Position numbers and translations under genes: made by a program
Shown: one piece after another, positions 37,097-41,151 of the stretch
Position numbering within the stretch: the stretch's first letter is position 1
Layout of the letters: every line of letters begins with the position of its first letter
Notes under the pieces: generated by a model
Seen by the model: only the letters and a program-made list of their open reading frames with translations
What the model was told of the DNA's origin: nothing
The model's database searches: none
From: an uncultured Acidobacteriaceae bacterium
GTDB lineage: Bacteria > Acidobacteriota > Terriglobia > Terriglobales > Acidobacteriaceae
Direction: 5' to 3'
Length of the DNA: 64,000 nucleotides
Assembly (NCBI GenBank): GCA_963808805.1
Contig: CAWEGN010000011.1
Location: 34,583 to 98,582, forward strand

Positions 37097-37237
37097 CCAG
37101 CTTCCAGCTTCTAGCCGCTAGCTGCTAGCTCATCCTTTTTGTTACAAATTTTGAGATCGAAACCCTCAGCTTTGCCCCAACCGGCCCCGCTAGACGATGA
37201 ACCGGCTAGAAGCTAGGAGCTAGAAGCTAGAAGCTCG
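37097..37237. repeat. Inverted CTAG-heptamer arm pair (37097-37131 / 37204-37237) with ~72-nt core
   Basis: Arms are CCAGCTTCCAGCTTCTAGCCGCTAGCTGCTAGCTC and GGCTAGAAGCTAGGAGCTAGAAGCTAGAAGCTCG. Occupies the nusG-rplK spacer. Confidence 0.88.
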
Positions 37238-37239
37238 CT

Positions 37240-37890
37240 TTACTCAATCTTTTCCACCTTGCCAAACTCCAGTTCCACCGGCGTCGACCGCCCGAAGATC
37301 GTCACCATCACCTTCAGTGTCTCGCGGTCTTCGTTGATCTCGTCCACCACGCCGTTGAAGTTGGCGAACGGCCCGTCGGTGATGCGCACCTGCTCGCCCT
37401 TCTCAAACTTGAGCTTCATCCGCGGCTTGTCTTTGACCGTCTCTGAGCGGAAGAGAATCGAACTCACCTCTTCCTCGCTCAGCGCCACGGGCTTGTCGCC
37501 GGTGCCCAGAAATCCCGTTACCTTGGGCGTGTCCTTCAGCACGTGCCAAAGGTCGTTGTCCAGTTCCATCTCCACCAACACGTAACCGGGCAGAAACACC
37601 CGCTCCACAGTGCGCTTCTTGCCGTTGATGATCTCCGTCACCGGTTCGGTGGGAATCATCACGCGCCCCACGCGTTCCTTCAGCCCAAAGGCCTGCACGC
37701 GGCTCTCGATCGACTCCCGCACCTTGCGCTCGAAGCCCGAGTAGGCGTGCAGTATGTACCACCGGAAGCGCTCGTTCCGCTGCGGCCGCGCCTCTGCTTC
37801 GCCCGCCTGCGCCTCCGCCTCGGCCTGCGTTTCTACCGCTGCCGGTGCTTCTACCTGCGCCTCTACGGGTTGTTCCAACTCATCTGCCAT
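37240..37890 (-). CDS. nusG: Transcription termination/antitermination factor NusG (acidic N-terminal extension)
   Basis: NGN region WYILHAYSGFERKV and KOW motif GEQVRITDGPFANFNGVV. Confidence 0.93.
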   Translation of the reverse strand: MADELEQPVEAQVEAPAAVETQAEAEAQAGEAEARPQRNERFRWYILHAYSGFERKVRESIESRVQAFGLKERVGRVMIPTEPVTEIINGKKRTVERVFLPGYVLVEMELDNDLWHVLKDTPKVTGFLGTGDKPVALSEEEVSSILFRSETVKDKPRMKLKFEKGEQVRITDGPFANFNGVVDEINEDRETLKVMVTIFGRSTPVELEFGKVEKIE

Positions 37891-37917
37891 TCTGCTCTCG
37901 ATTCCGTGCTGCGCCGG

Positions 37918-38226
37918 TTACTGCGATCCGCCCAGCAGGCTCAATATCCCATGCGGCCCCATTATGGCGGTTTTGAAAATGAAGTCGACGATGAAGAAGA
38001 ACAACCCAAACAGGAAGGTCGCCACGATCACCACGCCCGTCGTCACCCTCACTTCCTTCCACCCTGGCCAAACCACCTTGCGCATCTCCGCGCGTACATC
38101 GCGCAGAAAGTCCGTAAACTCGCTCCACTTGCTCAGCGCGCCGCCCCCAAACTCGGCCAGGGCCCCAGGCTCCTGCCGTTTCGCGGACCGTTCTTCGCCT
38201 CTCTCGATTGCCGTTTTCGTCGCCAT
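37918..38226 (-). CDS. secE: Preprotein translocase subunit SecE
   Basis: ..FLRDVRAEMRKVVWPGWKEV followed by a single C-terminal TM. Conserved tRNA-Trp/secE/nusG synteny. Confidence 0.88.
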   Translation of the reverse strand: MATKTAIERGEERSAKRQEPGALAEFGGGALSKWSEFTDFLRDVRAEMRKVVWPGWKEVRVTTGVVIVATFLFGLFFFIVDFIFKTAIMGPHGILSLLGGSQ

Positions 38227-38239
38227 ATTTCCAACCCTT

Positions 38240-38349
38240 CTTCAGCCTTCAGCCGTCAGCCTTCAGCTTCATCCCGCTTGCGCTTGCCTCATCCGCTCCA
38301 TCCACCGTTGCAAAAGCTGAGAGCTGAAAGCTGACAGCTAATAGCTGTC
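38240..38349. repeat. Inverted heptamer arm pair using CTTCAGC / AGCTGAN units
   Basis: Left arm at 38240-38270 is CTTCAGC CTTCAGC CGTCAGC CTTCAGC. Right arm at 38315-38349 is AGCTGAG AGCTGAA AGCTGAC AGCTAAT AGCTGTC. They are complementary by eye. Confidence 0.88.
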
Positions 38350-38357
38350 TCTCAAAC

Positions 38358-38433
38358 TGGCAGGGGCGGAGGGATTCGAACCCCCAAGTCCGGTTTTGGA
38401 GACCGGCAGTTTAGCCGTTGAGCTTACGCCCCT
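38358..38433 (-). tRNA. tRNA-Trp (anticodon CCA), CCA encoded
   Basis: AGGGGCG acceptor, anticodon loop CTCCAAA, T arm GGGGGTTCGAATCCCTC; 76 nt. Confidence 0.9.
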
Positions 38434-38438
38434 GAAAT

Positions 38439-38544
38439 CAGCTCTTAGCTTCTAGCCTCTGGCTTCTAGCTTGGCCGGGGGAGAACCGAATACTAAACCT
38501 CCCGATACCGGAGCTAGGAGCTAGAAGCTAGCGGCTAGAAGCTG
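38439..38544. repeat. Inverted CTAG-heptamer arm pair with ~35-nt core
   Basis: Arms are CAGCTCTTAGCTTCTAGCCTCTGGCTTCTAGCTTGG and GGAGCTAGGAGCTAGAAGCTAGCGGCTAGAAGCTG. Occupies the rpmG/tRNA-Trp spacer. Confidence 0.88.
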
Positions 38545-38546
38545 CC

Positions 38547-38696
38547 TTACTTCGTTTCCTTATGCACCTGGTGCTTGCGGCAGCGCTTACAGAACTTCTT
38601 CAGCTCGAGACGGCCCGTGACCGTCTTCTTGTTCTTCGTCGTCGAGTAGTTCCGCTCTTTGCACTCGGTGCACTCCATTGTAATGATTTCCCGCAT
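38547..38696 (-). CDS. rpmG: 50S ribosomal protein L33
   Basis: Not in the ORF track (49 aa). The reverse complement reads [49 protein letters not shown]-stop, with two CxxC pairs. Confidence 0.9.
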
Positions 38697-38708
38697 CTCA
38701 AACCCCTT

Positions 38709-38810
38709 CAGTTCTCAGTTCTTAGTTCGTAGTTCTCAGTTTCCGCTGCGCCGCTCATCCCGTCGCCAGCCACAGTCGCGTCAACTGTAAACTGCGAACT
38801 ACGAACTTAC
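38709..38810. repeat. Inverted heptamer arm pair using CAGTTCT/TAGTTCG and AACTGNN/AACTACG units
   Basis: Left arm at 38709-38743, right arm at 38783-38810, with a ~20/22 complementary core stem. The right arm contains the tuf stop codon. Confidence 0.88.
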
Positions 38811-40082: not shown

Positions 40083-40203
40083 GCTGCTTCTAGCTTCTAG
40101 CCTCTAGCTACTAGCTACTAGCTACTAGCTCAATCCTGCTTCTGCAAGCCACATCGGCTCAATCTCCCACCCTACAAGCTAGAAGCTAGTAGCTAATAGC
40201 TTG
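40083..40203. repeat. Inverted CTAG-heptamer arm pair with ~46-nt core
   Basis: Left arm ends (CTAGCTA)x4. Right arm is AGCTAGAAGCTAGTAGCTAATAGCTTG. The core aligns to the cores at 40.66 and 40.87 kb. Confidence 0.88.
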
Positions 40204-40266
40204 CCTTTCTCATTTCCCCTGCGCCCGGCCGATGATCTCGTCGGCAATCATGCGCGGCGCCTCAAA

Positions 40267-40299
40267 CTGTTCCCTGATCCCTGATCCCTGTTCCCTGCC
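40267..40299. repeat. Heptamer array (GTTCCCT/GATCCCT)
   Basis: CTGTTCCCTGATCCCTGATCCCTGTTCCCTGCC, ending 4 nt before the stop of ORF 40304-40612. Confidence 0.85.
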
Positions 40300-40303
40300 T
40301 TTC

Positions 40304-40612
40304 TCAGTAGTACGCGTACGCCTTCAAATACCTCTGCCTCAGTTCCAGCGGCACCGCTTCCACAAGTCTCAAATACCGCTCTCGCGTCAGCGCCTGGTCT
40401 GAAACCGGCAGCGCCTGGTACAAACCGATCGCGTCCTTACCCAGCAACCCGCGATCGAGAATCCCCTCGTAATCGCGGATGCGCCGCTTGGCCTTGCTCA
40501 CCCGGTTCAGGAAGACTTCCACGTCGCGCGCATCGAACGCTGCATCGATGAGCGCGTGAAGCCTCTGATATCCCGGCTCATCCTTGACCGCGATCGCTGC
40601 CTGCTCAAACAT
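40304..40612 (-). CDS. Hypothetical protein (102 aa) embedded between tRNA-Gly and tuf
   Basis: Clean ORF with host-like codon bias, bracketed by heptamer elements. No family recognised. Confidence 0.5.
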   Translation of the reverse strand: MFEQAAIAVKDEPGYQRLHALIDAAFDARDVEVFLNRVSKAKRRIRDYEGILDRGLLGKDAIGLYQALPVSDQALTRERYLRLVEAVPLELRQRYLKAYAYY

Positions 40613-40628
40613 CCTTAAACCTCAAAAA

Positions 40629-40741
40629 CAGCCTCTAGCTTCTAGCCACTAGCTTCTAGCTCGATCTTGCCGCCTCAAACCTCAGAGGTTCAACCTGCCA
40701 CTACAAAAGCTAGAAGCTAGGAGCTAATAGCTAGTAGCTTG
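40629..40741. repeat. Inverted CTAG-heptamer arm pair with ~45-nt core
   Basis: Arms are CAGCCTCTAGCTTCTAGCCACTAGCTTCTAGCTC and AGCTAGAAGCTAGGAGCTAATAGCTAGTAGCTTG. Confidence 0.88.
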
Positions 40742-40745
40742 TCTC

Positions 40746-40820
40746 TGGAGCGGGAGACGGGACTCGAACCCGCGACCAACAGCTTGGAAGGCTGTGACTC
40801 TACCACTGAGTTACTCCCGC
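40746..40820 (-). tRNA. tRNA-Gly (anticodon UCC), CCA encoded
   Basis: GCGGGAG acceptor, anticodon loop CTTCCAA, T arm GCGGGTTCGAGTCCCGT; 75 nt. Confidence 0.9.
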
Positions 40821-40829
40821 CCGTAAAAC

Positions 40830-40939
40830 CAGCCTTTAGCTTCTAGCCACTAGCTTCTAGCCCGACCGTTCCGCTTCAAGCCTCGGCGGCTCGTCCGCCG
40901 CCGCCAAGCTAAAAGCTAGAGGCTAGTAGCTAGAAGCTG
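40830..40939. repeat. Inverted CTAG-heptamer arm pair with ~44-nt core
   Basis: Arms are CAGCCTTTAGCTTCTAGCCACTAGCTTCTAGCC and AGCTAAAAGCTAGAGGCTAGTAGCTAGAAGCTG. Confidence 0.88.
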
Positions 40940-40944
40940 ACTTC

Positions 40945-41020
40945 TGGAGCTGATGACCAGGATTGAACTGGTGACCTCTCCCTTACCAAGGGAGTGCTCT
41001 ACCAACTGAGCTACATCAGC
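40945..41020 (-). tRNA. tRNA-Thr (anticodon GGU), CCA encoded
   Basis: GCTGATG acceptor, anticodon loop TTGGTAA, T arm CCAGTTCAATCCTGG; 76 nt. Confidence 0.9.
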
Positions 41021-41036
41021 CCGCTAAACCCACAAA

Positions 41037-41151
41037 AGCCAGCCACTAGCTTCTAGCCGCTAGCTTCTAACTCCGTTCTGCTCGCCCGTGCCTCGTCGCC
41101 TCGATCTTGCACTACCGAAGCTAGAAGCTGGGAGCTAGCAGCTAGGAGCTG
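41037..41151. repeat. Inverted CTAG-heptamer arm pair with ~46-nt core
   Basis: Arms are AGCCAGCCACTAGCTTCTAGCCGCTAGCTTCTAAC and AAGCTAGAAGCTGGGAGCTAGCAGCTAGGAGCTG. The right arm encodes the last codons and stop of ORF 41142-41369. Confidence 0.88.

Follow-up and report, generated by a model that had tools for sequence, protein, structure and literature searches.

What are the inverted heptamer repeats that fill the spacers of a tRNA-tuf-secE-nusG-rplK operon, and what keeps them there? We approached this question in a 64-kb stretch of its source genome (G+C content, 61.5%), which is the material analyzed here and is called the window. NusG relatives with conserved synteny, together with a Terracidiphilus metagenome-assembled genome that has the same cluster, indicate that the source organism is an acidobacterium of the class Terriglobia. 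A preliminary description of this DNA had listed six elements with CTAG-containing heptamer arms in the operon and a seventh at 1318-1471, and had regarded them as copies of one element without a described family. We find that they are extragenic hairpins made of heptamer microsatellites, which turn over by slippage and homogenization, have in part multiplied locally, and have been gained or lost at some spacers. Our favored reading, held with about even confidence, is that the elements resemble repetitive extragenic palindromic (REP) sequences and MITEs (miniature inverted-repeat transposable elements), and are co-transcribed "punctuation" hairpins built from heptamer microsatellites.

The minus strand carries every gene at 36.6-41.9 kb. 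All elements of the cluster lie on this transcribed strand and are intergenic, with genes or tRNAs as neighbors. The transcript order is as follows.

5' half: tRNA-Thr(UGU), tRNA-Tyr, orf75, E6, tRNA-Thr(GGU), E5, tRNA-Gly, E4, orf102
After orf102: (CAGGGAN)4 array, E3, tuf, Ht, rpmG, E2, tRNA-Trp, Hs
End: secE, nusG, E1, rplK

The window holds seven CTAG-heptamer elements (E0 to E6), four other heptamer-armed hairpins, which brings the inverted pairs to 11, and eight unpaired heptamer arrays. The earlier list was incomplete, as it lacked the hairpins at 38238-38346, 38706-38807, 3975-4220 and 62259-62428. The paired elements are listed here.

1317..1470, minus strand: E0, CTAG-heptamer hairpin in the spacer between leuB (1448-2545) and leuC (start about 1304)
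37095..37239, minus strand: E1, CTAG-heptamer hairpin occupying the nusG-rplK spacer; long outer stem P1 of the rplK leader
38238..38346, minus strand: Hs, hairpin with AGCTNTC units in the tRNA-Trp/secE spacer; 103.6 bits
38440..38543, minus strand: E2, CTAG-heptamer hairpin in the rpmG/tRNA-Trp spacer
38706..38807, minus strand: Ht, hairpin with AGTTCNN units in the tuf/rpmG spacer
40084..40202, minus strand: E3, CTAG-heptamer hairpin in the orf102-tuf spacer
40630..40743, minus strand: E4, CTAG-heptamer hairpin in the tRNA-Gly/orf102 spacer; 108.9 bits
40833..40938, minus strand: E5, CTAG-heptamer hairpin in the tRNA-Thr(GGU)/tRNA-Gly spacer
41041..41151, minus strand: E6, CTAG-heptamer hairpin in the orf75/tRNA-Thr(GGU) spacer
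62259..62428, plus strand: argF/argG hairpin with CAGTGNN units and the same architecture, then GCUGCUUUGAGG
3975..4220, strand not assigned: leuA/lysR hairpin with AGGGAAT/ATTCCCT units and a core of about 190 nt, in a divergent region; minimum free energy, -103.9

The common architecture of the seven CTAG-heptamer elements was borne out. Both arms of each were recovered by Tandem Repeats Finder and by our own period-7 scan, in 7/7 the right arm reads as an imperfect reverse complement of its left counterpart, and the copy placed between leuC and leuB is E0. The motif CTAGNNNCTAGNNNCTAG is present 20 times in the window, where 100 dinucleotide shuffles give an expectation of 0.00, with all matches confined to the named spacers, the 1318-1471 copy and one unpaired array at 41397. 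The seven elements together with Hs and Ht fold far more stably than dinucleotide shuffles, with z-scores of -3.3 to -7.2. They are neither tRNAs nor open reading frames (ORFs), as had been stated, nor do they belong to any Rfam family: Rfam release 15 found only tRNAs at gathering thresholds, and its E-value mode added only miRNA-precursor look-alikes far below threshold.

On the transcript, the hairpin begins a few nucleotides after a stop codon or tRNA 3' end with a 5' arm of about four NNNNYAG units, continues with a core of 40-85 nt and closes with a 3' arm of CTRNNNN units. It is followed either by a U-run and a tRNA or by a Shine-Dalgarno sequence and a start codon. In the nine cluster and leu copies the flanking genes or tRNAs are co-stranded, and only a few nucleotides separate the hairpin from the stop codon or the tRNA 3' end upstream of it, and again from the next tRNA or Shine-Dalgarno sequence. 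The fit can be closer still: the 5' arm of E0 contains the leuB stop codon, that of Ht begins with the tuf stop codon, and that of the argF/argG hairpin overlaps the end of argF, while the rpmG Shine-Dalgarno sequence comes after the 3' arm of Ht and UUUUUGAGGUUUAAGG-AUG comes after E4.

The anatomy of the unit was read from 103 hairpins of this operon, taken from the window and its relatives. Within the YAG block the mismatch rates per unit are 2.4% for A and 0.9% for G, and the third variable position (N3) is mismatched in 50% of units. This pattern means that the stem consists of blocks of about 6 bp with a 1x1 internal loop every 7 bp. The median arm is 28 nt (four units) and the median loop 48 nt. 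GGG is absent from the arms AGCTNCT, AGCTNTC and AGTTCNN, and the G-tract is found only in the unpaired CAGGGAN/CTAGGGA arrays. The arms thus lack a G-tract, and G-quadruplexes cannot explain them.

What is shared between the copies differs from one group to the other. Significant core similarity (z = 3.5-8, local alignment against shuffles) links E3, E4, E5, E6, Hs and Ht, and these six elements align over their full length, including a common 3' flank UUUUGAGG. Judged by their sequence they are paralogues. The likeness that had been noticed by eye between the cores at 40.13, 40.66 and 40.87 kb was confirmed, with z = 5.0-8.0 and 0/300 shuffles. The cores of E0, E1 and E2, on the other hand, have no similarity to other cores, so that the idea of copies of one element holds for E3 to E6, with Hs and Ht added, and fails for these three; E2 has an inner helix GGGAGG...CUCCC. 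In a paralogue/orthologue alignment (A3) double changes are found at 19/30 stem pairs, and its covariation of 0.395 against 0.247 was reached by 0/500 shuffles. The same core type recurs in relatives under quite different arm units, and a second core type, UCGGGAAG...CUUCCCG, recurs in the spacers from rpmG to tRNA-Trp and from tRNA-Trp to secE.

These hairpins also occur outside the operon, as the preliminary description had proposed to check. A covariance model (R1) built from the first core family, whose E-values are rough, scores three window copies outside its training set at 52-62 bits; among these E0 reaches 62 bits. The argF/argG hairpin obtains 15.5 bits (E = 0.07). In other loci, R1 matched about 60 further hairpins among the matches listed, mostly in Acidobacteriota. 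In a genome collection, where loci were selected by arm pattern and counts again refer to the matches listed, at least 51 Acidobacteriota loci were found, of which one is this operon and two are associated with tRNAs. As so few of the loci lie at this operon or beside tRNAs, the hairpins appear to be dispersed genome-wide. Among 52 placeable hairpins of the window and the Acidobacteriota matches listed, 50 lie between genes, usually 0-15 nt from both neighbors. Heptamer-armed hairpins with other units are present in several other phyla among the matches listed. Nearly all matches of a fuzzy collection search with the core motif GG.G..GGATTGAGC were false positives, and this search was set aside.

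Relatives show how the elements change over time. An exact NusG look-up in assemblies gave no match, and an EF-Tu look-up led to L001, an independent assembly that is 97-99% identical to the window and carries E4, E5 and E6. Scanning metagenome contigs with NusG produced 80 loci with conserved synteny, mostly from Joint Genome Institute metagenome samples, with NusG identities of 74-94% (mostly 82-94%). These relatives share ancestry, so that counts from their alignments are not independent, and the genes of these loci were called only crudely. The elements are not an assembly artifact, as L001 shares those at 40.6-41.15 kb and about 60 metagenome contigs carry the nusG-rplK copy.

In about 80 related Terriglobia contigs hairpins occupy the same spacers, and the heptamer depends on the lineage. 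The spacers from rpmG to tRNA-Trp, from tRNA-Thr to tRNA-Gly and from tuf to rpmG have a heptamer-armed hairpin in nearly all relatives; in the E5 spacer (tRNA-Thr to tRNA-Gly) it is found in 10/10 distinct relatives that reach that far. The lineage units (AGCTNCT, AGCCNTT, CAGTGNT, CAGGGAT, CAGTTGT, CAGATGA, AGTGAAN and others) form a near-continuous series in which YAG/CTR is always kept, and relatives have AACTGAC/AACTGAG units directly upstream of rpmG. CTAG can therefore no longer be taken as the defining feature, since the same spacers use these other units. Within one genome the arms of different spacers are more alike (5.38/7 identities) than across genomes (4.02/7; 0/1000 permutations).

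Occupancy is variable elsewhere. In the spacers from orf75 to tRNA-Thr, tRNA-Gly to orf102, tRNA-Trp to secE and orf102 to tuf, some relatives have a hairpin and others have none, so that the presence/absence polymorphism that had been suggested as a check was indeed seen at orthologous sites. The E6 site (orf75 to tRNA-Thr) is empty in 6/10 relatives. A filled/empty pair at tRNA-Trp to secE reads GATTGAATTGGGATGCG versus GATTGCAAGT[hairpin]CTGTTTTTGAGGGATGCG, with no clear target-site duplication. L001 lacks E3 and has in its orf102-tuf spacer a 131-aa ORF (L001 5341-5736) in place of the array and E3. Other small genes are found in these spacers as well: a two-gene cassette (about 150 aa and about 85 aa, no family match) is present between tuf and rpmG in loci L139, L159 and L173 and between orf102 and tuf in L126 and L143, and in L139 a heptamer hairpin lies upstream of it. 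The 131-aa ORF of L001 is unrelated to this cassette. The spacers of the tRNA-tuf operon seem to be places where small genes insert.

One explanation for such data would be a true MITE, a non-autonomous element whose transposase is encoded elsewhere and whose terminal inverted repeats are the heptamer arrays. The elements have inverted ends, lack coding capacity and measure 105-140 bp; there are paralogous copies with common cores and the flank UUUUGAGG, a clean filled/empty pair at tRNA-Trp to secE and a 97-99% identical strain without E3, and the likeness of arms within a genome would fit a recent spread. However, no target-site duplication could be defined, and the window contains no autonomous element with these ends, its sole intact-looking insertion sequence (IS) having unrelated ends (ACTGTCCGGTTAA). 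We know of no RAYT transposase for these arms. Transposition also leaves unexplained that orthologous copies keep the core while the arms change, and it does not account for the unrelated cores of E0, E1 and E2. Moreover, relatives that are "empty" between orf75 and tRNA-Thr retain the core 5' motif GTAGTGGCAG, which fits arm decay in place rather than insertion. Taken as a whole, a true MITE is improbable in our view.

The nusG-rplK spacer is about 160 nt long in 61 distinct aligned sequences, and the architecture of E1 is found in nearly all of them. The stems were scored by our own stem definition, as RNAalifold mis-registers the repeated arms of this alignment. The outer heptamer stem P1 is paired in 86%, with double changes at 11 pairs, and orthologues differ by 7-nt indels. 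Three smaller features belong to this leader.

37179..37207, minus strand: inner helix P2 of E1, AGCCGGU...GCCGGUU
37148..37153, minus strand: unpaired CAAAAU of the E1 core, in columns that are invariant over the 61 sequences
37085..37100, minus strand: small hairpin GGUUCCGAAGGAAC between E1 and the ATG, containing the rplK Shine-Dalgarno sequence

P2 is paired in 96.5% of cells, 48 of which are compensatory, and its covariation of 0.349, against 0.158 in shuffles, was reached by 0/500. A sense-strand G.U pair in this helix is kept in 58/61 sequences. Its presence in nearly all distinct relatives and the conserved structure make E1 an old and fixed part of the rplK leader and no recent insertion. 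Of the candidate explanations offered earlier, the two leading ones can each be upheld in part, namely a REP/MITE-like family and a structured RNA module.

On the transcribed strand the sequence after E3 to E6 reads GCUG(G)(C)UUUU(U)G, with 4-5 U (GCUGUUUUUGAGG and similar). The earlier statement that most copies lack a U-tract is correct for the plus strand only, as on the transcribed minus strand 4-5 U follow the four copies at 40.1-41.15 kb. When U-runs were counted at spacer ends, 45/54 spacers from rpmG to tRNA-Trp had four or more U among their final 7 nt, at the 5' end of the tRNA, whereas none did from tuf to rpmG (0/38) or from nusG to rplK (0/61), which end with a Shine-Dalgarno sequence. 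In other Acidobacteriota loci, among the matches listed, the hairpin has a T-run after it in 8/31 cases on the gene strand and in 2 on the other strand.

Could the elements then be intrinsic terminators or attenuators with unusually long stems, which set the steps tuf > rpmG > tRNA-Trp/secE/nusG > rplK? As in Rho-independent terminators, a G+C-rich stem base (CAGC/GCUG) is directly followed by a sense-strand U-run in E3 to E6 and in the copies before tRNAs, and the positions fit the operon boundaries of E. coli, which lie after tuf and after nusG. The differences are considerable, however. The stems are about 28 bp long and interrupted by a mismatch every 7 bp, loop lengths are 40-85 nt (median, about 48 nt) instead of 3-8 nt, and the U-run is missing from the copies that precede the rpmG and rplK ORFs. 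A consensus terminator scan flags just one element, and there only a short sub-stem. Hairpins also lie between adjacent tRNAs and inside biosynthetic operons (leuB-leuC and argF-argG), where termination would be harmful, and a canonical terminator is already present after rplK. We consider it improbable that the family as a whole serves termination. A terminator with a promoter embedded in the loop was dropped, as a consensus promoter scan found none in any core: in E1 the invariant TTG and CAAAAT, tried as a sigma-70 promoter, are 21 nt apart and thus too far, and the pattern TTGNAG-N17-AAGCTA of E3 to E5 lacks a credible -10 hexamer.

The reading of the elements as punctuation hairpins has a DNA layer, which is partly shown, and an RNA layer, which we infer. 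At the level of DNA, arms would arise and turn over via slippage in 7-nt steps, and homogenization would keep them complementary and alike within one genome; this might happen through template switching between arms, through conversion between copies or through local duplication of whole elements. The arms indeed look DNA-maintained, based on their strand symmetry (see below), the 7-nt indel steps and the within-genome arm likeness. At the level of RNA, the elements would be tolerated or retained only in spacers, and the transcribed hairpin would punctuate a long tRNA/mRNA transcript. It may do so by folding the spacer away, by bringing the end of the upstream gene or tRNA beside the next start, and as a stable 3' hairpin and double-stranded processing target, comparable to RNase III targets in other bacteria. 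Copies with a U-run before tRNAs may provide an attenuator or a processing context of the RNase E/RNase P type, and copies before ORFs, with the Shine-Dalgarno sequence at the foot of the stem, may make translation of the downstream gene depend on that of the upstream gene (coupling). Cores and flanks, in contrast to the arms, look RNA-selected, as the G.U pair in the inner helix of E1 and the U-run or Shine-Dalgarno flanks are sense-strand signals.

Several results weigh against this reading. Transition mismatches in the arms are strand symmetric (100 G.U versus 96 A.C), the fold of the arms alone is more stable for the sense strand in 53 and for the antisense strand in 44 hairpins (p = 0.42), and an earlier strand-bias count gave 60 versus 47. 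A bias of G.U over A.C as proof of RNA pairing in the arms was thus not significant in three versions of the test and has been abandoned. As selection for RNA pairing normally gives a clear G.U excess, this symmetry leaves the arms without an RNA signature; only for E1 did a count based on the alignment favor the sense strand (134 versus 62), in sequences that are not independent. Several spacers are empty in some relatives, which indicates that the hairpins are dispensable there. Divergent, promoter-containing spacers hold 5 hairpins where about 8 are expected, a depletion that is not significant and depends on crude gene calls. The large loops and the periodic mismatches make the hairpins poor canonical terminators, a normal one is available after rplK, and every RNA function proposed here is deduced from position and flanks.

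The main rival is functionless DNA: palindromic heptamer microsatellites that are expanded by slippage, made symmetrical by template switching and tolerated in spacers, with incidental effects on RNA. This is possible, although we regard it as rather unlikely. It would agree with the strand-symmetric arm mismatches, the 7-nt indels, the fast heptamer turnover at orthologous sites, the patchy occupancy of several spacers and the presence of similar hairpins in many phyla among the matches listed. According to Mrazek 2007, as summarized in PMC4679880, many bacteria have heptanucleotides as their most frequent long simple-sequence repeats, and these have been tied to polymerase slippage. On the other hand, the same spacers keep hairpins over genus-level divergence although the arm sequence is replaced, and an invariant AG/CT with one free position per unit is a non-neutral pattern. 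The preference for four units, which is also seen in Xanthomonas, the sense-specific flanks (U-run before tRNAs, Shine-Dalgarno sequence before ORFs) and the fixation of E1, with a covarying inner structure, in nearly all 61 distinct relatives also argue against a lack of function.

The strict conservation of part of the unit could alternatively reflect a feature of double-stranded DNA, such as protein-bound CTAGCT blocks with a 7-bp period or a cruciform, with a role in nucleoid organization, replication priming or recombination. Sequence is kept beyond what pairing needs (AG/CT is invariant every 7 bp), the arms are strand symmetric, genomes have their own heptamer "dialects," and CTR is the primase initiation triplet, which would suit the replication-priming variant. 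CTAG is otherwise avoided in the window (78 copies versus 222 expected from base composition), and 50 of the copies (64%) lie inside nine elements that make up 1.9% of it. We nevertheless consider such a feature very unlikely: we know of no candidate protein, many different heptamers occur together in one genome, placement follows gene ends and starts instead of a chromosomal periodicity, and the flanks are specific for the sense strand. A more speculative version of the punctuation reading is that a genome-specific trans-acting factor, a protein or an RNA, recognizes the 6-bp block around YAG and reads or even writes the arms, the heptamer dialect common to all hairpins of a genome being a programmable punctuation used in many phyla. 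This is unlikely in our opinion, but if true, processing, termination and translational coupling would be directed in polycistronic tRNA/mRNA transcripts, and the long-known heptamer repeats would gain a function.

Repeats of this kind are already known, and the absence of a described family that had been assumed earlier has to be corrected, as convergent inverted heptamer pairs near stop codons have been reported in Xanthomonas. Rehm et al. 2015 (PMC4692102) described heptameric repeats in Xanthomonas (GGGAATC / GGGANTN) and Nostoc (GGGGAYT). In Xanthomonas the arrays have mostly four units, are about 90% intergenic, lie beside or overlap the upstream stop codon and are mostly found between co-oriented genes; 70-75 cases are convergent pairs capable of forming a stem-loop, 83% are kept in their gene context between species while length and sequence vary, and most are transcribed (PMC4692102). 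The elements described here likewise have exact 7-nt tandem units, perfect or heterogeneous and about four in number. Inverted pairs capable of forming a stem-loop are present 11 times in the window, and arrays are intergenic, lie near the upstream stop codon or overlap it, and keep their gene context across relatives with variation in length and sequence. The locus holds an acidobacterial version of the Xanthomonas convergent heptamer pairs. In contrast to the Xanthomonas repeats, the arms (AGCTNCT and similar) have no G-tract, the pairs enclose conserved and partly paralogous cores and lie beside tRNAs, and a ribosomal-protein leader has one of them as a fixed part. The Xanthomonas paper (PMC4692102) does not describe the YAG/CTR rule, the phase-specific mismatch or the within-genome concerted change of the heptamer.

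A second comparison is with the direct TAACTGA heptamers of marine Beggiatoaceae, Cyanobacteria and Bacteroidetes (MacGregor 2015, PMC4679880). They also form intergenic arrays of 2-6 units, often a few nucleotides before a start codon and including ribosomal-protein operons, and TAACTGA rephased is CTGATAA, which is of the CTRNNNN 3'-arm type. They differ in that the arrays are direct, with one inverted case in that genome, and no hairpin, core or link with tRNAs has been described for them. REP, BIME and REPIN sequences of enterobacteria and pseudomonads are, like these elements, extragenic, multicopy and transcribed hairpins in intercistronic and 3' regions, and REP sequences stabilize upstream mRNA and attract IS insertion, which can be compared to an IS within a heptamer array in the window (PMC3116915; general knowledge). 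The elements here, however, lack a GTAG head or a single palindrome of 20-40 nt, and their arms are microsatellites with a 7-nt period.

With Correia (NEMIS) and ERIC elements the likeness is in size (100-150 bp), inverted ends around a core, the lack of coding capacity, the probable co-transcription with neighbors and presence/absence between strains. Those elements form a long hairpin that is cleaved by RNase III or RNase E, which alters mRNA stability. Correia elements end in unique 26-bp repeats and have a TA target duplication, whereas the ends here are heptamer arrays that vary between genomes around a constant core, and no target duplication was seen. The STRR heptamers of cyanobacteria are related repeats. 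A study by Elhai and coworkers from 2008, which is said to report small repeats inside cyanobacterial heptamer arrays, stands outside this comparison. In the literature searched there is no description of these elements in Acidobacteria, and a 2026 terminator survey does not mention them. What appears to be new is the CTAG/AGCT variant without a G-tract in Acidobacteriota, with its enclosed conserved or paralogous cores and its association with tRNAs and the rplK leader. The same applies to the YAG/CTR rule, under which one position of each unit is free, to the exchange of units at orthologous sites and to the concerted change within a genome.

Other features of the window are given below.

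40304-40612: orf102, a small protein inside the tRNA-tuf operon
41142-41369: orf75, a small protein inside the tRNA-tuf operon
36588-36618: canonical short-stem terminator after rplK
40265..40299, minus strand: unpaired (CAGGGAN)4 array directly after the orf102 stop codon
2606-2660, 11904-11971, 15891-15949, 16120-16181, 17482-17612, 17962-17991 and 41387-41423: other unpaired arrays

Both small proteins are conserved (62-83% identity) in every relative that reaches that far, and neither they nor the inserted small ORFs have a Pfam or NCBIfam match. Beyond the terminator lies a recJ-like gene (34618-36531) convergent to rplK, and rplA does not adjoin rplK, which is unusual for this cluster. 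The spacer from tRNA-Thr(UGU) to tRNA-Tyr (41516-41778, 263 nt) has no heptamer hairpin. It contains a block kept across relatives, ...GGUGAUCCCACUGAGGUGCAUGCUCCGA..CCGGAG..UCCGG..., which may be a promoter, a leader or a small structured RNA; Rfam gave there only a sub-threshold sX4 match (41371-41527) that overlaps just the first 12 nt of the spacer.

Among the unpaired arrays at 40265-40299, 41387-41423, 11904-11971, 2606-2660 and 17962-17991, several have minus-strand units of the forms (CAGGGAN)n, (CTAGGGA)n and (ACAGGGA)n. Such G3N4 units in at least 4 repeats can form G-quadruplexes and are of the same type as the GGGAATC repeats of Xanthomonas; others read (GAGAACA)n. An IS at 16124-17611 ends in perfect terminal inverted repeats, ACTGTCCGGTTAA / TTAACCGGACAGT, and encodes a transposase with DDE_Tnp_1 and DUF4372 at 16185-17354 on the minus strand. 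It lies within a (CTGTTCT)n array, of which 7 units are at 16124-16175 and 18 units at 17485-17611. This is reminiscent of IS insertion into REP sequences. A gene at 12472-14163 that fuses a DNA methylase (N6_N4_Mtase) to an Mrr-like endonuclease lies beside IS-type integrase/transposase genes and several heptamer arrays, and this region may be a small mobile island.

To our knowledge, no function of heptamer repeats has become accepted since they were described in cyanobacteria around 1990 and in Xanthomonas. The arrays have practical consequences, as they mislead gene callers (a spurious call of the 131-aa type, or ORFs over the arms, is easily made) and concentrate the otherwise avoided tetranucleotide CTAG. 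More importantly, the locus is a clean comparative system, in which the same operon spacers in dozens of related genomes keep the hairpin while the unit is rewritten. If the hairpins are functionless, they would be a good model for the birth, homogenization and loss of palindromic microsatellites. If they are processing or coupling signals, they would explain how the mixed tRNA/mRNA operons of the Terriglobia are organized, and the question of what heptamer repeats do would become testable.

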